Virus record (IMG/VR): IMGVR_UViG_3300045988_125893
Length of the DNA stretch: 64,000 bases
Source: a virus
Reading direction: 5' to 3' (one strand)
Shown here one piece after another: positions 333 to 51,832 of the stretch. The notes under the pieces are model-generated. The model had not been told where the DNA came from. It searched no databases and saw only the letters and a program-made list of their open reading frames with translations. Every line of letters starts with the position of its first letter. Position 1 is the stretch's first letter. The translations under genes were made by a program, and so were the position numbers.

Positions 333-375
333 AGTTTATTGTGGAACGTAAAAATAAAAAGGAGGAGATAGCGAT

Positions 376-497: not shown

Positions 498-529
498 AAG
501 TGCTCCCGTCTGCGAAGATCGGAGCACTT
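498..529 (+). other. stem-loop E1: 9-bp stem aagtgctcc/ggagcactt, 14-nt loop cgtctgcgaagatc
   Basis: perfect complementarity read directly; loop shares CTG-GAAGAT core with E3/E4. Confidence 0.6.
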
Positions 530-534
530 GCTTT

Positions 535-603
535 ATGGGATTCATGGTGCGGTAGGTCGGTTCGATTCCGGCGATCTCACACAATATTAAAAACAAATGA
601 GGT
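535..603 (+). promoter_or_regulatory. tRNA T-arm/acceptor-like minihelix plus conserved leader, copy 1
   Basis: tgggatt(535-541)/gatctca(573-579) acceptor-like pairing around gtcgg-TTCGATT-ccggc T-arm; ~85% identical to 1806-1849; ends at ATG 604. Confidence 0.4.
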
Positions 604-1008
604 ATGTTAAAAGAAGAATTTGAAGACTTTATTAAAAGAGAGGTAAGTGATGAACTTTACAAAGATATAGAGGTGGTGTATAATGTTCTGCCTGAATATA
701 TGGATAAGTTGTATTTTGCAGACGCTATATTAAAAGATGTAGGGAAGACTGTAAATGTTTTGTCGGCTTTAGGAGTACACATACGTGAATTGAATAACGC
801 ACGCATAATCGAAAAAGAAAAGATTAGATCGTGTGCGTATGATTTGATACATAAGGCTCATGACGAAGATGATTTAACAGCAAGGGAGATTGCTGTTAAA
901 TTGATAGGAGAAAGGGAAACGGTAGCATATACTGTAAGGGAAGGTCTGCCATTATGGGAACAAGATAAAAAGTTTATAATAGAATTAATGAAGGAGGAAA
1001 GAAAATGA
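604..1008 (+). CDS. hypothetical protein
   Basis: ORF track 134 aa; SD-like tgaggt upstream. Confidence 0.6.
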   Translation: MLKEEFEDFIKREVSDELYKDIEVVYNVLPEYMDKLYFADAILKDVGKTVNVLSALGVHIRELNNARIIEKEKIRSCAYDLIHKAHDEDDLTAREIAVKLIGERETVAYTVREGLPLWEQDKKFIIELMKEERK

Positions 1009-1352
1009 AAGATGGCATTACATTGCATCCAGAACATGGATTGAACCCGTCTATAGAAGTCTGCATGATATGTGGTGCAGAGATGGGCATTGCCTTATTA
1101 GGGAATAATATTAAAGGTCAGGCGCCGCATCATATATGTACGGGCGGAGTATGTGACGATTGCAAAAAGATAATAGATGATGGTGGTTGTTTTATTATCG
1201 AGGTTGAAGATGGTTCAGATCAAAAGAATCCGTATCATACAGGAAGATATTGTGCGATAAAGAAAGGGGTAGCAAAGAAAATGTTTGGAAAGGAGCATAG
1301 TATTGTGTACATGGAAAAGTCTGCATTCAGTCAAATGATACCACAAAAATGA
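1005..1352 (+). CDS. hypothetical zinc-binding protein (CMICG...CDDC)
   Basis: ORF 115 aa; AAGGAGG SD upstream; ATGA overlap with previous gene. Confidence 0.6.
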   Translation: MKDGITLHPEHGLNPSIEVCMICGAEMGIALLGNNIKGQAPHHICTGGVCDDCKKIIDDGGCFIIEVEDGSDQKNPYHTGRYCAIKKGVAKKMFGKEHSIVYMEKSAFSQMIPQK

Positions 1353-1675
1353 AGAAGGATATGTTTACAAAAGAAGAAAGATTATTTATATGGAAACAAG
1401 TATATGATATAATCAATAGGTCAGAGAATGGGGAATACATATGCATTGCATTAAAAAATGTAGTATTTTATTTTTTCAAAAAACATAAAGAAATAGAAAT
1501 TATGAGTTTAGATGAAATGGTGAGAATATATTTCCCGGAATTGAGAGCAAGGAGAAGTATGGCTACAGAACCAGAGGAAATATGGAGGATATATGGATGG
1601 TTTGGTTGTATTAGTCCAGAAACGAAGGAGGTGAGACTGAATATTGTAAAAGATATTATAAAAGAATTAGAATAG
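1349..1675 (+). CDS. hypothetical protein
   Basis: ORF 108 aa, ATGA overlap. Confidence 0.6.
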   Translation: MKKDMFTKEERLFIWKQVYDIINRSENGEYICIALKNVVFYFFKKHKEIEIMSLDEMVRIYFPELRARRSMATEPEEIWRIYGWFGCISPETKEVRLNIVKDIIKELE

Positions 1676-1721
1676 TATTTTTGTTAACCTATTTTATTCA
1701 TCAAATTAAGTTTTGGGTTTT

Positions 1722-1759
1722 GGCATGTCGGTTCGTGAGGATAGGCATGCCTATTTTTA
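1722..1759 (+). terminator. stem-loop E2 (ggcatg/catgcc, 18-nt loop tcggttcgtgaggatagg) followed by tattttta
   Basis: perfect 6-bp GC stem plus T-run after gene ending 1675; loop motif GTGAGGATAGG. Confidence 0.55.
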
Positions 1760-1805
1760 TGTCATAGAGGGATGACGCGGCGTGCCGGCATGTATGTGCC
1801 GGTTC

Positions 1806-1849
1806 TGGTTCGATTCTGGGCATCTCACAAACAATAAAACAAAAGAGTT
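1806..1849 (+). promoter_or_regulatory. tRNA T-arm-like conserved leader, copy 2 (ctggTTCGATTctgggcatctcacaaacaataaaacaaaagagtt)
   Basis: near-identical to 556-603; preceded by hairpin gccggca/tgccggt (1784-1803); ends at ATG 1850. Confidence 0.4.
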
Positions 1850-2083
1850 ATGAGAATATACAAGAATGATATTATAAAGGCGTCAGCGATAAGCACCAGC
1901 GACGACAGGGGATTATTACTGTGTTCAATAACAGATTCGGGATTCACGTCTATAGCTGGTGTAATATCGGCTATTAAAGACAAGTTGCCAAACAAAGATC
2001 ATAAGAAGATGGTTTTTGAAATTTTGAATGATACGAAAAAAGAGTACGGAAGATATAATAATTGCGGAGGAAAAGTGTTATGA
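1850..2083 (+). CDS. hypothetical protein
   Basis: ORF 77 aa directly after conserved leader. Confidence 0.5.
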   Translation: MRIYKNDIIKASAISTSDDRGLLLCSITDSGFTSIAGVISAIKDKLPNKDHKKMVFEILNDTKKEYGRYNNCGGKVL

Positions 2084-5547: not shown

Positions 5548-5583
5548 CGGCACTGGTCTGTGAAGATAGGTGTCGTTTTTTTT
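5548..5583 (+). terminator. stem-loop E3 (ccggcac/gtgtcgg, loop tggtctgtgaagatag) followed by T8
   Basis: 6-bp stem with one G-U pair, 16-nt conserved loop, tttttttt at 5576-5583. Confidence 0.7.
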
Positions 5584-17791: not shown

Positions 17792-18029
17792 CAGAAAAAC
17801 ATAAATGACATGAACAATTTTGTAATAGATACTCCTGATAACTTCTGGCAAATAAGATGGCTTGACAAATACATGGAAGGTCATATAAGTATAAGGGATA
17901 TGGTTACAATACGTGTAGGGAGACAAAGAAAAAGCTTCTGCAAGCTCTTAAGGGTGTGAATGTAGAAGAGGAAGACGTATCTTTGTATGCTGATGGAGGA
18001 TAGGATTAATTGAAAAAAAATAGAATATT

Positions 18030-45415: not shown

Positions 45416-48400
45416 CTACTTGTAGCTCACATCATCGTCTCCTTCTGAATCAGGAGTGGCACCGATGAAAAACATCATTGACTTGTTGTTCGTCTGCTGC
45501 CACCAGTTATAGGCACGTGCTACGTCTTCCGGCGTCTTAATGTTATACCATTGTTTGATAAACGTCTGTTTAGCGAGTTGTCTAAATAACTTAGACTCAC
45601 CTTTATATGTACCAGATGTTACTTTATCAAGTGAGTAGTTCCTGAGATCGGTGAGATCCTTCAGTTTCCGTCCCATGACAAATGGGTCATTAATGATATC
45701 CACCACATTAAGCTCCATAATAAACGGCATCTGTGAAGCTATTTCATTTATGGTTCTAAATCCTACATAAGATCCGAATTGAGTAAGCCAGCTTTCCTCG
45801 TTTTCATCATCATCACGCCATCCGGCAAGAAGCATAGACACGGCCTGCATGATGAGGAACGTGCCGGCATAAACACTGAGGCGTTTAAGATTAGTCTTTT
45901 CCACCTCACCCATCTTATCTTTATTTTCGTTCCAGGCATCTATGATATTTTTCATACCAGGCTCGGAAGCTAAGCTAAATGTTTTAGCTATCATATTCTT
46001 TAACGTAATTGACAGCCCTTCCTCTTCTTGCATTGTCTGGAAATTGAATCCCCTTCTTTTCCACAGACGTTGAGCCGCCAGCACCAGCCATCCTCGGTGG
46101 GCAGTCATGAACCTGGCTATCCAGTTACGTGATGCGGCGGTTCGGTTTTCTTCATTCAAAGATCCGTTACATATCTGTGACAAGCTACGAACCTGATTAC
46201 GGGTTATAGCCATCTGGGTTTCAACTTCCTCAACAGTAACACCCGATCCTGGTTTCACAACCACCTTGCCGTCTACAACATCTACCATACTCCATAAAGT
46301 ACGATCTCTTAATGCATCCCATTCTCTTTTTATAGTGCTCTGTTCTTTATTGCGTTCTTTTTCCATCTTGAAATCCTGGAACGTGTAGAACCGACCTTTG
46401 TAATAACGAACGTTATCCATCGTAGCGATCATAACCTGCGGATCAAGAGGGTAGTTCATGATTTCCATAAAAGCATACATCGGTGAACGCATTAAGGTCC
46501 TGGCCGCCCTATTATATCCGGCACCATACATACGATTTCGGATATTGAATATCCCCATTCTCTCACCTATGACATATAATTTGCTTTTTCTATCTATGTC
46601 TCCGGTTTCTGCTATACAAGATGGCGCAAGACGTGAAAACTCAGCCGATGCGTATTTAAGGGAATCTTTGCTTATATATTGTCCTACGGCAGATTCCATG
46701 ATGAGGTTAATATGACCTGTCAGAGCGCCGGTAGCTGCCACAAACGGGGACAGCGCTAAGTTCATGACCGACATAAACCTTTCAACGGCCATCATAATTC
46801 TTGTAAGATCTATCGTGTATCCACCGATGTTAACCGTAAGTTTCTTGGTGTTCATCCTAATGCCATAATAATGGTCATTAAAGAAGTCTCTAAACATCTG
46901 GTATGCTTGAGTTGCCTCAGCTTTCTTACCGCCTTCAAATTGCTTATTCAGTAACATCTGCTCCAGTCCTTGGGCAAGCTCTATAGACTTCTGCTTTTCG
47001 TTGTATAACGATGATTGCATCATAAGCATCGAATAAGAATAACCAAAATCATGAGATACGTCATCTTGGTTCTCTAATTCATATATGTAGTATTTAGGTA
47101 TAGACCTAATCCTATCTTCTGGATCATATACTTCCCCTTGTCTGGTTTTACCGTATAGAGAATCGTCTACTCTGTCCAGACAGAGATCTGATACAAAATT
47201 ACGAACCGTATTTTTGAAGTTGATACCCAATCCCTCCATACGTTCTATATCTTGTTTGGATATCTGTGGAATAGCATACAAATTGGGGCTCTGCTCTTTG
47301 TATAAGGAAAGGGATTGTCTTTTTATTTCCTTAAGTTTTTGAATCATATTCCATTGCTCTACGTTTTTAGTAGCAATCTCATTACCATCAGCATCATATC
47401 TAATGCCGAAGTCATTGAAATACGATTCATCACGATACAGGCTCTTCTTGGGCATACGATAACCATACCCATGATCTTTTACATAATCTGGGTTACGACC
47501 GCTATTTTCAGCTTCAGATTCAGCCACCCACGCTCTTGCAGGGTCGAAAGATAGGTACGATATATTCATACCATAATCTTGTGTGGATGTCCCGTTCTGT
47601 ACGTCTTTAACCATCTGTGCCACGTCTATCTCACCTCGACCTATTTTACCAAGCATAGCCGCATATCCGGTAGGAGCCATGCGTTTGTAATATGAAAAGA
47701 CTTGACTTCTGGCAAATTCATTAACAATAGCATTAGCCTCTTCTATACCTGATTCTCTTGTGTTATTTAAAAACAAGCTGGCCATCTTAGTATTGACAGC
47801 ATTCCTAAAATCTCTACCGTCTAATTCTTTGTTTATTCCAAGCTTTTCTGACAAGTAGTTGGTTTCAGATACAGTAAACAAATATCGGTTATCAGCAGCC
47901 TTAAATAGTTTATCCCTTAAGGCTTGAATCCTTTTTGCTTTCTTTGCCGTAGTATGACGTTGCACAAACTTCCATTCCACTTCCTTGGAGTCAGCAAGAG
48001 CATTTAAATAAGATTGATTGACTTCGTTTTCAGCCTTACTGCTTTTAGTAAGGTATTTATCAATATCTTCAAGACCCACCATCTTAGCATAATCTATTAA
48101 AATAGCGTAATCGGTTTCAATAGCTTCAGATGCAGCCCTAAAAGCATCTCTTTCAGATGAGGTAAATGTCGCTTCATTGATTTCTCCGATGTCAGCCACA
48201 TCGCGGTTATTCCCAATTATTTCCTTGATGATAGCCCTGTTTTTTTCTATATCTTTCACAATAGCTTCTACGTCTGTCGCATCTCTATCACTTGTCGTAG
48301 AATTAATGATATCATGCGCCATTTTAAGATACGAAGCCTTGTTGTTTGATTCGGTGCGTGCCGACTGATCTGACTCTATATCATTCCAAAACTGATCATT

Positions 48401-51400
48401 AAAAGCCAGGTGTCCTCCTAACATAAGCGTTCTCAGTGCAGCCTCCCCTCCAGACTCACGCTGAATCGTTCTCAATCTTTCCAAAAATGATTCTGATACG
48501 GCATTAGTAACATTATTTGATTCTTTTCTCCATACTTCATTTATAGCTTGTATTTCTTTAGCCATCTTGAGTTGATCACCGGTTTTATCGACTCTTCTGG
48601 TTCCTACATATATGTATTCTGAAGCTGCTTCCTTACGTTGTTTACGAAGCAGTCCTTCTTCTTCATAATTACTGCTCTTGAAGTAAGCAACTTCATCAAA
48701 ATTACCATTGCTATCAATAAAAGGTTGCCTCAATATCCGTTTTTGCCGGGAAAGAGCATTAAGATATTCTTTAGTTGTTTGAGAAACCGGATACCCCAAT
48801 TCTTCTTCAGCCTTTTTGTATATGGATTCCATTCTTGTGGCATAACTTTCACTAAATTCCAGTTCTGAATTTTCAGCATCCCACTTCTCCATCTGTTCTG
48901 TATAAATCCTTTCCTGCTCGATGGTAAAGATGTCGGTATTAACCCTATCAGAAGAAGGTTTGAATTTAGCGTTCTCAGTAACCGTATTTCCATCCTTGTC
49001 AACTACTTCTCTTTTAAACACATAATTACGGTTATTGTCAACCACATCATTGATTTCTTCTTCTGATATCTCTATGTTCATGGCAGTTGCAAACGCTCGC
49101 ATCTGCGCCAGCTTCTTATTACGATCGTATTTAGCCATATCAAGAGCACTACGAAGATAATTAGAAGTCTTGCCGTCTACTTTCTGAAGCAGTTTTTCAA
49201 ATTCAGATTTATTGAAACCATGTTTTTTCGCATATGCCAGGAAGTCGGATATGGCTGGCTGGGCATTCACCATCGCATTATAATTGTCTTTGGCAATCAT
49301 AGCTCCAAGAGCGTTATTAAACGGGCTGGAAGAATGTTCTAATATACCAAACCACCTACTTATCCAGGACACATCGTGTTGAACTTTATCAAAGAACTCT
49401 TTTACTTTCTTTACCTTATCTGCCGGCACATGAAGTTCGTTCATTAACTTGTCAAGCAACGTACTTTCATCAAGATCTTGTACTGATTTAATATCAGACT
49501 GAATACCATTGATGTCGGCAATGACGGTATTGATCCTATTTGTATAATCTTGCTTTTCACGTTCGTCAAATTCGGTACTTCTGTTACGGATATATCCTCG
49601 AAGATCGTTCATGATCGGAAGAACCTGATTGTTGATAATATCTACGTTCTTTCGATCATTGGTATTGAAATGAAGTTTACCGTCTTTGGTATCACCATGA
49701 AGGATAGTATTTACTACATTGCTTAAGTATCTGACCTGAGCTTCGGCTGTGGAGATCATGCTATTCATGGCAGCCGCCATCTCATTTTTGTCTATTTCGG
49801 TCTCTACCTTATTTATCTTATCTTCTATGGTCTTAAGTTGAGCAAGGGTCATAGATGTAGTTACAGCCCTATCAGAGCTTATCTGACGTAAGTCTCTCAA
49901 TGTTTTTCTCAATGCCCGGATCTTAGACTCAAGAAACTTGTTCTTGTTCATAGAGGAAAGAGAGTATAATGTAAAATCATTATCCTTTAAAAGAGAAGTA
50001 TCAAATCCTTTATCTATGTCGGTAATAGCAAGATCACGAATGTTTTTAATAACGTTATTCAAATCTTGTCTTTGGGTAGATAAAGCTGATTTAAGCCAGT
50101 TTACGATTCCAGAGAGAAGCTGCCGGACGCGTCCCAGGAAGGAGGTGGGCTCTATGGGCGCCGTTCTGTCCTGCATCTCCCTGGCAAGGATCTTTCCAAG
50201 AATTTCTTTCCTAACTACATTGTCAAGTTCAGTTCCTTCATATACCTTACCGTATGTATTATAATACTGATTTGCATACTGATTCCATTCTTCAGTGCCT
50301 TCTACGTCTTGCAAAACAGATTCAACAGCATTCTGATCTCTGTACGCCTCTACAAGGAAGTGGGCTGTTTCTTCTACTAAGTCAGACAAAGTAGCATCTT
50401 CACCGACTGCTATTACGTTATTGGCAATATCCGCCAATGCTTTAGCAGAAGGTTCGTGTCCGTATTTAGTTTGGTACTTCTCTATATAATCGGTCATGCC
50501 AACGACACTAACGCCCAGCGTTTTCAGTATCTCAACAATAGAATTTCGTTGATTACGTTCCTCTTGGCTATAATCCGATACTATCTTAGCTTTAGTATCA
50601 GCATAAAGATCATTGTCTTCTAATATAAATGAAACTACAAGCGCATCAAAGTGATCGTATTTAGCATCCAATTCATTGTATCTTCCAGACTTAAGATCGC
50701 TCTTTATCTGCTCCTTGCTAACTCTTTCTGTTCCTCCGGTGGCGAGTCTCATAGTCACCTTACTATTATCCAATGAATTTATGGTTATCATGCCTTGATC
50801 ATTCATGGAAACATCAGAACTGAAATGATTACGAAGTTCGGTATAAGCTAAGGCTGAATTGAAAAGTCTAATTTGTCCTGCATGTCCTTCTCCTGTAAGA
50901 TAATAGCTTCTTGTTTCCGGATCGAATATCTTGGATCCTGACAAAAGACCTTTCTTTATAAGGTAGTTTATTATCCCACCTTTTGTTGATAAAGAAGTGG
51001 AAGCAGAGGCGGTCATAACAGGTATAAAAGATTTGGGGTTGTTAAGGACATACTTTCCAGCCTTGTAAGTAATGTCTGCCACGCCATCCCAGGCAGATTC
51101 TTGAACGGTGCCAGATAAGAATCCTATTCTGATATCATTCCCGCCAGAGCGAAGAGCTTCTCCGTAATCTTCAAATAATTGATTACGATCATTCATAAAA
51201 AACAAACGAGGTTCTCCAGTCTGATACGTTACACCCACAGGATTAGAATCTGTTTCTGGTAGCTCTTCTGGACTAAATATCTTAAGACCGTCTTTTATAA
51301 CCATATAATTAACATCATTATCCTGTACCATAGATACGGGAGTGAAGTCCGAAGATATAGCATCTTGTAGATACTGCCCTGAGTCTATTCCTGGTTCTTC

Positions 51401-51832
51401 CGGCACGGAGATCCTTGACGGAACCATAGCATCCACCAACATAATATTATCACCCAGATCTTGGCTATAGAATCCAAAGCCTGATTCTTGAATCCCATAA
51501 GGTGCATCTGATTTCGACACAAGAATAGGGTTGCTCATCTTAGAAGCCTTATCCAGCACCCTTTCTCTATAGGTCTCTGGAATAAGGCCGATGTTAGATT
51601 TTACCTTATTGTAAGCCTGTTTGTTGATAGGCACATTCCTTCTCCAGTCACCAAAAGCCTTTAAGAACTTATTAGAAAATACGGTTTTAAAAACAGTAGT
51701 AGCCCGTTCCCTATTTTCCATAAGAGGAATAGATGCTATCTTATCGAATAACATAGACCTGTCCCCTGATCTGGTAGAGACAGAAACAACTTTCTTTTTA
51801 TTATCTCTTTTAATAATACACGTTGATACCAT
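45416..51832 (-). CDS. giant 2138-aa protein, probably virion-associated (tape-measure/ejection/cargo-type); function unknown
   Basis: uninterrupted 6.4-kb ORF heading the minus-strand block with structural-like genes; no Walker or polymerase motifs recognised by eye. Confidence 0.9.
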   Translation of the reverse strand: MVSTCIIKRDNKKKVVSVSTRSGDRSMLFDKIASIPLMENRERATTVFKTVFSNKFLKAFGDWRRNVPINKQAYNKVKSNIGLIPETYRERVLDKASKMSNPILVSKSDAPYGIQESGFGFYSQDLGDNIMLVDAMVPSRISVPEEPGIDSGQYLQDAISSDFTPVSMVQDNDVNYMVIKDGLKIFSPEELPETDSNPVGVTYQTGEPRLFFMNDRNQLFEDYGEALRSGGNDIRIGFLSGTVQESAWDGVADITYKAGKYVLNNPKSFIPVMTASASTSLSTKGGIINYLIKKGLLSGSKIFDPETRSYYLTGEGHAGQIRLFNSALAYTELRNHFSSDVSMNDQGMITINSLDNSKVTMRLATGGTERVSKEQIKSDLKSGRYNELDAKYDHFDALVVSFILEDNDLYADTKAKIVSDYSQEERNQRNSIVEILKTLGVSVVGMTDYIEKYQTKYGHEPSAKALADIANNVIAVGEDATLSDLVEETAHFLVEAYRDQNAVESVLQDVEGTEEWNQYANQYYNTYGKVYEGTELDNVVRKEILGKILAREMQDRTAPIEPTSFLGRVRQLLSGIVNWLKSALSTQRQDLNNVIKNIRDLAITDIDKGFDTSLLKDNDFTLYSLSSMNKNKFLESKIRALRKTLRDLRQISSDRAVTTSMTLAQLKTIEDKINKVETEIDKNEMAAAMNSMISTAEAQVRYLSNVVNTILHGDTKDGKLHFNTNDRKNVDIINNQVLPIMNDLRGYIRNRSTEFDEREKQDYTNRINTVIADINGIQSDIKSVQDLDESTLLDKLMNELHVPADKVKKVKEFFDKVQHDVSWISRWFGILEHSSSPFNNALGAMIAKDNYNAMVNAQPAISDFLAYAKKHGFNKSEFEKLLQKVDGKTSNYLRSALDMAKYDRNKKLAQMRAFATAMNIEISEEEINDVVDNNRNYVFKREVVDKDGNTVTENAKFKPSSDRVNTDIFTIEQERIYTEQMEKWDAENSELEFSESYATRMESIYKKAEEELGYPVSQTTKEYLNALSRQKRILRQPFIDSNGNFDEVAYFKSSNYEEEGLLRKQRKEAASEYIYVGTRRVDKTGDQLKMAKEIQAINEVWRKESNNVTNAVSESFLERLRTIQRESGGEAALRTLMLGGHLAFNDQFWNDIESDQSARTESNNKASYLKMAHDIINSTTSDRDATDVEAIVKDIEKNRAIIKEIIGNNRDVADIGEINEATFTSSERDAFRAASEAIETDYAILIDYAKMVGLEDIDKYLTKSSKAENEVNQSYLNALADSKEVEWKFVQRHTTAKKAKRIQALRDKLFKAADNRYLFTVSETNYLSEKLGINKELDGRDFRNAVNTKMASLFLNNTRESGIEEANAIVNEFARSQVFSYYKRMAPTGYAAMLGKIGRGEIDVAQMVKDVQNGTSTQDYGMNISYLSFDPARAWVAESEAENSGRNPDYVKDHGYGYRMPKKSLYRDESYFNDFGIRYDADGNEIATKNVEQWNMIQKLKEIKRQSLSLYKEQSPNLYAIPQISKQDIERMEGLGINFKNTVRNFVSDLCLDRVDDSLYGKTRQGEVYDPEDRIRSIPKYYIYELENQDDVSHDFGYSYSMLMMQSSLYNEKQKSIELAQGLEQMLLNKQFEGGKKAEATQAYQMFRDFFNDHYYGIRMNTKKLTVNIGGYTIDLTRIMMAVERFMSVMNLALSPFVAATGALTGHINLIMESAVGQYISKDSLKYASAEFSRLAPSCIAETGDIDRKSKLYVIGERMGIFNIRNRMYGAGYNRAARTLMRSPMYAFMEIMNYPLDPQVMIATMDNVRYYKGRFYTFQDFKMEKERNKEQSTIKREWDALRDRTLWSMVDVVDGKVVVKPGSGVTVEEVETQMAITRNQVRSLSQICNGSLNEENRTAASRNWIARFMTAHRGWLVLAAQRLWKRRGFNFQTMQEEEGLSITLKNMIAKTFSLASEPGMKNIIDAWNENKDKMGEVEKTNLKRLSVYAGTFLIMQAVSMLLAGWRDDDENEESWLTQFGSYVGFRTINEIASQMPFIMELNVVDIINDPFVMGRKLKDLTDLRNYSLDKVTSGTYKGESKLFRQLAKQTFIKQWYNIKTPEDVARAYNWWQQTNNKSMMFFIGATPDSEGDDDVSYK

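Follow-up and report, generated by a model that had tools for sequence, protein, structure and literature searches.

The 64-kb stretch of DNA analyzed here (64,000 nt from IMG/VR virus record IMGVR_UViG_3300045988_125893, hereafter the window) carries two short tRNA-like elements, each placed shortly ahead of the start codon of an open reading frame (ORF). The window comes from an epsilon crAss-like phage of the human gut, and its first 6 kb are 90% identical to crAssE-Sib (OR575929.1). crAssE-Sib, likewise an epsilon crAss-like phage from human gut, has a 151-kb genome that encodes six tRNAs and a virion RNA polymerase like that of phi14:2 (PMC11054128), and it is the sole representative of the lineage among GenBank phages. 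Both elements lie on the + strand in the early-gene region, between same-strand ORFs, and precede ATG codons at 604 and 1850. In crAssE-Sib they are located 1.4 and 2.7 kb from one genome terminus, inside a block of small same-strand ORFs. The ORF after element 1 (604..1008, +) codes for 134 amino acids (PHROG 15742) and belongs to a cassette that is absent from many relatives; it is followed by an ORF for a C4 zinc-finger protein that is conserved in crAssphages (1005-1352). The ORF after element 2 (1850..2083, +) codes for 77 amino acids. A sequence-only reading of the window had proposed two copies of a tRNA T-arm-like leader ahead of ORF starts, and both copies are present on the + strand. 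Their strand and same-strand surroundings suggest that the elements are transcribed within an mRNA precursor.

Element 1 (537..579, +) is a top-half tRNA minihelix, identified from its sequence, a descriptor match and covariation. Its acceptor-like 5' strand GGGATT (537-542) is followed by a 13-nt linker (543-555), a T-arm, and the acceptor-like 3' strand GATCTC (573-578), which ends in a discriminator-like A579. The T-arm that had been proposed for this copy can be read directly at 556-572, where the T-stem strands GTCGG (556-560) and CCGGC (568-572) enclose the T-loop TTCGATT (561-567). An A-rich leader of 24 nt (580..603, +) leads up to the ATG at 604. Element 2 (1769..1827, +), identified on the same three grounds, starts with the acceptor-like 5' strand GGGATG (1769-1774) and a 10-nt linker (1775-1784). 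An optional 18-nt hairpin, CCGGCA-TGTATG-TGCCGG (1785-1802), a single T, the T-arm TCTGG-TTCGATT-CTGGG (1804-1820) and the acceptor-like 3' strand CATCTC (1821-1826) with A1827 complete the element, and an A-rich leader of 22 nt (1828..1849, +) extends to the ATG at 1850. Several measurements from the sequence-only reading needed adjustment. Copy 2 begins at 1804 rather than 1806. The identity of ~85% given for the two copies applies to their ungapped core (21/25, 84%) and drops to 77% across 48 gapped columns. The linker of copy 1 measures 13 nt, as had been described; that of copy 2 is 29 nt long, including the 18-nt hairpin, so copy 2 is not a bare minihelix.

In both elements the T-arm is that of a canonical tRNA: its 5-bp stem is closed by G53-C61, and its loop reads T54-T55-C56-R57-A58. 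The T-arm is stacked on a 6-bp acceptor-like helix, giving a conserved helix of 6+5 = 11 bp, and neither a D-arm nor an anticodon arm is present. Two features of tRNA-like processing signals of the t-element and mascRNA type are found here: a non-canonical fold in which an acceptor-like stem stacks on a T-arm (the 6+5-bp helix), and a position next to ORF starts on the coding strand (both elements, + strand). The distance from element to ATG is 22-32 nt ahead of at least five different ORFs. For element 1 it is 25 nt in the window and 23-32 nt in relatives, irrespective of the ORF; for element 2 it is 22-24 nt in nearly all relatives, which have two different downstream ORFs. We described the fold as a TTCRANN loop on a 5-bp T-stem closed by G-C, abutting an acceptor helix of at least 6 bp whose 5' strand lies 6-75 nt upstream. 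On both strands of the 64-kb window, this descriptor matches exactly two sites, elements 1 and 2, compared with a mean of 0.02 in 100 dinucleotide shuffles. A T-arm-only scan of the window returned the same two sites and no others. The 10-mer GGTTCGATTC by itself is not significant.

The elements are not recognized as members of established RNA families. ARAGORN at its default settings called no tRNA or tmRNA genes in the 64-kb window, and Rfam at gathering thresholds matched nothing in the window. At E<=10, Rfam gave no tRNA, tmRNA, YrlA, mascRNA or C4 match in 200-2500. When ARAGORN was relaxed to 80% of its threshold (-ps80), element 1 received no call and element 2 only an aberrant 95-nt call with a 4-base anticodon. 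The mitochondrial mode made no call in the window by default and flooded the region with calls when relaxed. A real or unusual tRNA was rejected, as ARAGORN (default and relaxed) and Rfam RF00005 revealed no canonical cloverleaf. Running tRNA finders had been proposed as a check, and neither copy holds a complete canonical tRNA. The description of a tRNA-like minihelix in place of a cloverleaf is borne out by these results and by covariation in the acceptor/T-arm helix. A tmRNA formed from the intergenic region IG1 with its small ORF (376-456, ending ...DAMA) was also rejected: the 3' strand pairs locally and not with the 5' end of the region, ARAGORN made no tmRNA call (default or -ps80), and Rfam gave no match.

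Three further pairing schemes were set aside. The minimum-free-energy fold of copy 1 extends the T-arm hairpin (GUG.CGG../..GAU.CAC), and we discarded this extension because the common linker variants GCAGCAA and GCAGCAG disrupt its pairing. Anti-Shine-Dalgarno pairing of AUCUCA (574-579) with UGAGGU (597-602) is confined to the window; neither copy 2 nor the relatives with other leaders have it. A G3:U70 alanine identity appears only in the 7-bp register of copies 1 and 2, the G.U changes to A-U in some variants, and it is absent in a third copy of the element described below.

Conservation, covariation and a third paralog

We scanned IMG/VR with a 23-nt core pattern, which matched at least 120 stretches. 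Both copies are present in most of the matches listed (at least 120); copy 1 always comes before copy 2, and the spacing between them is 504-2209 nt. We also assembled 79 loci anchored on the downstream protein, a set that is unbiased by the motif. The strict motif is kept for element 1 in 75/79 and for element 2 in 65/76 of these protein-anchored loci. The downstream protein is only ~72% identical in most of them, and the intergenic region is 91-100% identical to the window. Nucleotide diversity (pi) across the set is 0-0.004 in the acceptor strands and T-loop of element 1 and 0.03-0.07 in neighboring coding sequence. It rises to 0.12 in the element-1 linker and to 0.19, at wobble positions, in the 5' strand of its T-stem. 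The diversity constraint on element 2 is weaker than that on element 1.

A search for copies beyond the window had been suggested, and a descriptor scan of the relatives' loci identified a third paralog (#0) upstream of the window's start. In relatives, paralog #0 lies ~1.4 kb upstream of what is the window's first base (L002 7820-7882; about 500-580 of the crAssE-Sib record, minus strand, locus L210). It consists of GGTTGT, a 32-nt linker, TYCGG-TTCGATT-CCGGA and GCAACC; an A-rich leader of 25 nt and an ATG come next. The paralog has nearly the length of a tRNA but is degenerate: ARAGORN reports it only at -ps80, as a mismatched 71-nt cloverleaf, and it has no Rfam tRNA match. The three paralogs form a graded series, in which #0 is near tRNA length, element 2 has one inner hairpin and element 1 has none. 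In a few relatives the inner hairpin of element 2 has been lost through a CCGG...CCGG collapse.

Covariation was scored over the stem and loop columns of the three paralogs from all loci, which yielded 36 distinct variants in gap-free rows over a 12-pair helix. Pairs were counted after the linkers had been removed and the stems alone aligned, because with full elements MAFFT placed the acceptor 5' strands wrongly. The rows consist of stems only, drawn from paralogs in closely related genomes, and many of their changes are wobble swaps; with this composition, 92.4% of cells form a standard pair, compared with 75.5% in shuffles (0/500 reach the observed value), and the covariation score is 0.615, compared with 0.287 (0/500). 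When the 3' partners were slid as a control, 29-57% of cells paired. Changes on both sides occur at 8/12 pairs. In the T-stem, compensatory examples are GTCGG/CCGGC to GTCAG/CTGGC, TCCGG/CCGGA to TCTGG/CCAGA, and TCTGG/CTGGG to TCTGG/CCAGG. The acceptor strands differ among paralogs and keep their complementarity (GGGATT/GATCTC, GGGATG/CATCTC and GGTTGT/GCAACC).

The acceptor-like helix had been described as 7 bp long. Its inner 6 bp are supported by covariation, but the outermost (7th) pair, T536-A579, is specific to copy 1 within the window and forms in only 11/36 variants. Since this pair is unsupported, the conserved unit is the 6+5 = 11-bp stack. Substitutions in the T-loop fall at R57, 59 and 60, the sole exception being one variant (two contigs) at T54, and this is what would be expected of a working T-loop. 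The tolerance of G.U pairs together with compensatory change on the + strand indicates that the RNA is the constrained molecule. The same variation counts against the earlier suggestion of a repeated promoter, as does the lack of any predicted sigma-70-like promoter in or just after either element.

Upstream hairpins, genuine tRNAs and gene cassettes

Each element is preceded by a hairpin, detected by a hairpin scan and minimum-free-energy folding. Upstream hairpin 1 (498..529, +) ends 7 nt before element 1. A 1x1 internal loop separates its 9-bp outer stem from a 4-bp inner stem, which is capped by a GCGA (GNRA) loop. Relatives show compensatory changes in this hairpin (AGTGC/GCACT, AATGC/GCATT and AACGC/GCGTT). 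Upstream hairpin 2 (1722..1751, +) belongs to the same family, has a GTGA loop followed by TATTTTTAT, and ends 17 nt before element 2. It is absent in one relative (L013) that keeps element 2.

Real tRNAs in the same phages have a comparable layout. A cluster of four (Met, Gln, Arg and Cys), none of which encodes CCA, lies 8-9 kb upstream on the same strand. tRNA-Met and tRNA-Arg are each preceded, at a distance of 6-7 nt, by a hairpin of the family seen ahead of copies 1 and 2. Behind tRNA-Cys, an A-rich leader of ~18 nt runs up to the ATG of the following gene. Because the genuine tRNAs share the plan of hairpin, 6-7 nt, tRNA, short A-rich leader and ATG, the elements occupy what is otherwise a tRNA slot. 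As an account of origin, the suggestion that the copies are remnants of tRNA genes is supported by this shared layout and by the near-full-length, degenerate third paralog.

The leaders coincide with sites of gene gain and loss. Cassettes are gained or lost exactly at the leader/ATG boundary: window positions 603-990 are absent from many relatives, in which 602 is joined to 991, and other relatives carry an insertion after 1844, right behind the element-2 leader. In crAssE-Sib and L002, different or extended ORFs start directly after the same element-2 leader. In one relative, element 1 is fused to the element-2 leader, which suggests recombination between paralogs. A further indel junction lies at 2388, at a TATAAT box that follows a hairpin at 2340-2373.

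The hairpin family has additional members. Those in the window are at 498-529, 1722-1751, 2340-2373 and 5548-5575 on the + strand and at 51924-51891 and 45278-45245 on the - strand. In their shared design, an outer stem of 7-10 bp is separated by a 1x1 or 2x2 internal loop, often G/A or A/A, from an inner stem of 4 bp that a GNRA loop caps. The consensus is about GWCWGNGAWGWTAG, and a T-run comes after most members. Family hairpins are found ahead of the tRNA-like elements and of some ORFs and, in relatives, ahead of genuine tRNAs (at about 545-575 and 763-788 in L002). These hairpins could serve to terminate transcription, to protect 3' ends or to signal to a polymerase. Two of them flank an ORF of 2138 amino acids (45416-51832, -), the counterpart of a crAssE-Sib 'structural protein'; it has no Pfam match and marks a flip of coding strand and GC skew, with the strand switch near 45 kb.

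Two other features lie in the intergenic region upstream of element 1. An irregular GC-rich hairpin of ~60 nt (271-335) directly follows the stop of ORF 1-270 and is 96-100% conserved in comparison with relatives; no T-run follows it and it has no Rfam match. A hydrophobic mini-ORF of 26 amino acids (376-456, MKKAFKIFSIMFVIEIVLIAILDAMA) has a strong GGAGG ribosome-binding site and is kept in crAssE-Sib with amino-acid changes. Some relatives carry an insertion of ~230 nt just upstream of this mini-ORF (window 349-363).

A possible role in RNA processing

We propose that the elements derive from tRNAs and serve as t-elements, at which RNase P and RNase Z would cleave a polycistronic early transcript, and we give this interpretation a probability of roughly 45%. 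The sequence-only reading had offered a promoter or leader, a processing signal and a tRNA remnant as possible functions, and an RNase P/Z processing signal appears to fit best among the three. The elements have a conserved, covarying tRNA-like structure, hold a fixed place before start codons and share an identical layout with the phage's real tRNAs. Transcription through them, their cleavage, and a benefit from separating the cistrons of a long early transcript are presumed. Host tRNA-maturation enzymes would recognize the elements, as is the case for plant-mitochondrial t-elements or mascRNA. RNase P would cut at the 5' edge of each element (about 536/537 and 1768/1769), leaving the upstream RNA with a stable, protective GNRA hairpin at its end. 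The second cut, made by RNase Z or some equivalent 3' activity, would fall behind the discriminator-like A (about 579/580 and 1827/1828). The downstream mRNA would then begin with a short, unstructured, A-rich leader of 22-25 nt, which would suit Shine-Dalgarno-poor translation in Bacteroidales. In the crAss-like phage phi14:2, the 5' ends of early transcripts have no common upstream motif (bioRxiv 10.1101/2020.03.07.982082), and processed ends would explain why such a motif is missing.

The freed minihelices of 43 and 59 nt could gain a CCA tail. No CCA-tailed form of the elements was found in a scan of assembled metagenome contigs, a type of scan that is uninformative on CCA addition. A tie to a phage CCA-adding enzyme was rejected. 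crAssE-Sib encodes a 220-amino-acid protein annotated as a polyA polymerase/CCA-adding enzyme, and this nucleotidyltransferase-like gene is largely deleted in the window phage: only residues 1-25 and 178-220 are left, in different frames, at 17810-18006. In an extended version of the processing proposal, tRNA punctuation replaces internal promoters and terminators in an early operon of epsilon crAss-like phages that the injected virion RNA polymerase transcribes, and the CCA-tailed minihelices double as decoys in trans for host defenses that read the acceptor/T-arm or, alternatively, as partners for the phage Rsr/YrlA RNA-repair module. We regard this combined proposal as speculative and improbable.

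Several observations weigh against cleavage by RNase P and RNase Z. The copies are all from a single group of close phage relatives, and the covariation consists mostly of differences between paralogs and wobble swaps. In some element-2 variants a G x A mismatch replaces the innermost acceptor pair, the T-loop has been lost in one genome, and the helix has 11 bp where the canonical one has 12. Two other crAss-like lineages, BS162P1 and cr271_1, lack the element near their homologous zinc-finger gene. T-runs follow the upstream hairpins, and if termination there were efficient, the elements would not be transcribed from upstream.

An alternative view is that the elements are functionless, decaying tRNA pseudogenes, kept through the kinship of the phages and their location at recombination boundaries between cassettes. 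The deletion of the T-loop in one genome fits such decay, as do the graded series from #0 through element 2 to element 1, the polymorphic loss of the inner hairpin, the cassette indels at the leader/ATG boundary and the fusion of element 1 to the element-2 leader. We nevertheless consider pseudogenes unlikely. Stem substitutions are overwhelmingly pair-preserving and include double compensatory changes, and variation spares the tRNA-invariant positions of the T-loop. The helix and loop of element 1 are less diverse than the neighboring genes, with a linker that varies freely, and just the top half has been retained independently in three paralogs. Less likely still is an uncleaved structure in the 5' untranslated region, in which the transcript starts at or is trimmed to the element and the fold acts as a stabilizer, as an insulator that keeps the leader single-stranded, or as a translation enhancer. 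The constant 22-32 nt to the start codon, irrespective of the ORF, would suit this role. The elements also begin with GG after a conserved hairpin (6-7 nt away, or 17 nt at element 2), which could be part of a start signal for the virion RNA polymerase, and in crAss-like phages this polymerase is not known to use a common early-promoter motif (bioRxiv 10.1101/2020.03.07.982082). A plain hairpin would suffice for such a structure, however, which leaves unexplained both the preservation of tRNA-invariant T-loop positions and the presence of real tRNAs in the same slot, and no promoter is predicted just upstream.

The elements might instead act in trans, as small released tRNA mimics that serve as decoys for tRNA-targeting defense enzymes or as cofactors of the RNA-repair/Ro60 (Rsr) machinery. 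crAssE-Sib encodes Rsr beside a YrlA-like RNA (Rfam YrlA 28.5 bits, E=5.5e-4), along with a polynucleotide kinase/phosphatase (Pnkp), an NrnA-like phosphodiesterase and the annotated polyA polymerase/CCA-adding enzyme, and the elements lie in the early region near the genome terminus. But the last of these genes is largely deleted in the window, the elements give no Rfam YrlA match, they lack a D-arm and a Ro-binding helix, and they are ~75 kb from rsr. A free-standing small RNA gene would also have no need for the linkage of each element to a start codon, and we judge this function to be quite improbable. The lowest weight goes to a signal at the DNA level, either a promoter for phage or host RNA polymerase or an attachment or recombination site carrying the 3' part of a host tRNA. 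Although a conserved core of ~23 nt sits directly upstream of ORFs and mosaic junctions abut the elements, the G.U-tolerant, compensatory variation on the + strand only is a mark of RNA, no sigma-70-like promoter is predicted at the elements, and there are just three copies per genome. We searched one genome for each of 185,579 species with the pattern GGTTCGATTCYGGSSATYTCA, covering the 21-nt T-arm/acceptor 3' part. It gave eight matches and none in a bacterial tRNA gene; seven were unrelated sequence and one was a phage contig binned in a Veillonella metagenome-assembled genome. An attP core derived from a host tRNA gene was rejected on the basis of this result and of the lack of an integrase among the annotated genes of crAssE-Sib; the paper describing that phage could not establish integration (PMC11054128). 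The contig from the Veillonella bin (L206, NZ_DXLG01000138.1) is 3.9 kb long and carries elements #0 and 1; it is phage sequence that was probably binned wrongly, and hardly points to the host.

If the elements are RNase P/Z sites, they would explain how discrete early mRNAs arise, given that no early promoter motif has been found for the phi14:2 virion RNA polymerase. They would also represent an example of tRNA genes whittled down to the part read by processing enzymes, and a compact, portable processing-plus-leader module for gene expression in Bacteroidales. If they are pseudogenes only, they amount to a minor annotation note.

Comparison with known tRNA-like systems

The crAssE-Sib paper mentions six tRNAs and does not mention the elements (PMC11054128). 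A full-text literature search on crAss-like phages with tRNA-like elements gave nothing related. We compared the elements with tRNA-like systems from other sources. The t-elements of plant mitochondria contain GGTTCRANYCC and were discovered through a screen for this sequence; mRNA ends form where they direct cleavage by RNase P/Z (Forner et al. 2007, PMC1920247). The phage elements resemble them in combining a non-canonical tRNA-like fold with a perfect GGTTCRANYCC T-arm and an acceptor-like stem. In both systems real tRNAs nearby do an equivalent job, through RNase P/Z processing in plants and in terms of layout here. Both kinds of element are positioned beside ORFs, and in plants RNase P/Z cleavage at their borders creates mRNA ends. 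The phage elements differ in belonging to a bacteriophage early operon and not to an organelle, and their cleavage is putative. Their body is also far more reduced, with 43-59 nt and no D-arm or anticodon arm, they keep a tight distance of 22-32 nt to the start codon, and they have no sequence homology to the plant elements.

A second parallel comes from mascRNA and the MEN-beta tRNA-like element of the MALAT1/NEAT1 transcripts. In work by Wilusz et al. from 2008, the upstream RNA reportedly gains its 3' end through RNase P cleavage, and RNase Z and CCA addition are said to mature the small RNA. As with mascRNA, a tRNA-like element is located directly 3' of a stabilizing structure, which in the phages is the GNRA hairpin that ends 6-7 nt before element 1 and before real tRNAs. 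mascRNA differs in that it is a full cloverleaf mimic of the eukaryotic nucleus with a triple-helix protector, and the phage elements have no Rfam match to it.

YrlA-type Y RNAs contain a canonical T-arm and an acceptor-like stem, and some are cut by RNase P and given CCA (Chen et al. 2014, PMC4201824; RF02553). Like the elements, they mimic tRNAs, and they occur in phages with Ro60/Rsr, which this phage group also encodes. Unlike YrlA, in which a permuted T-arm, acceptor hairpin and D-arm sit in a Ro-binding helix beside rsr, the elements follow the normal tRNA order, lack a D-arm and an enclosing helix, are ~75 kb from rsr in crAssE-Sib and have no RF02553 match at E<=10; none of the features that define YrlA was found in them. 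crAssE-Sib itself has a YrlA-like Y RNA beside its Ro60-related (rsr) gene, outside the window and unannotated in the record (L211 22601-22705; crAssE-Sib record 72601-72705). Its parts are ordered T-arm, acceptor-like hairpin and D-arm (GAUC-AGUUGGUA-GAUU), closed by GGAAGGUG/CACCUUCC, and its Rfam score of 28.5 bits is under the gathering score of 69. The motif GTGGTGATGG recurs ahead of the tRNA-Tyr and tRNA-Lys genes that neighbor this RNA.

Acceptor/T-arm minihelices are said to have served as model substrates in the work of McClain et al. in 1987 and Shi et al. in 1998. As in these substrates and in the tRNA-like domain of tmRNA, the acceptor and T-arm of the elements form one coaxial helix, joined by a short, D-loop-like linker with GG. 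The elements differ in being a natural genomic unit that is linked in cis to mRNAs and in having 11 bp instead of 12; CCA is not encoded, an mRNA-like tag module is lacking, and ARAGORN calls no tmRNA. The PeSL cassettes of T4-type phages, reportedly described by Arbiol et al. in 2010 as a promoter plus a stem-loop, are comparable at the level of genome organization. Here too, repeated short modules flank small early genes and mark the junctions of cassette gain and loss, but PeSLs have no tRNA-like part.

A tRNA-like processing signal is a known kind of element that is unusual for a phage and resembles the plant mitochondrial signals. The setting in a phage early operon, the reduction to a bare top half and the tight coupling to the start codon would be new. 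If RNase P and RNase Z do cleave at these sites, the elements would represent a phage counterpart of mitochondrial tRNA punctuation and of plant t-elements.

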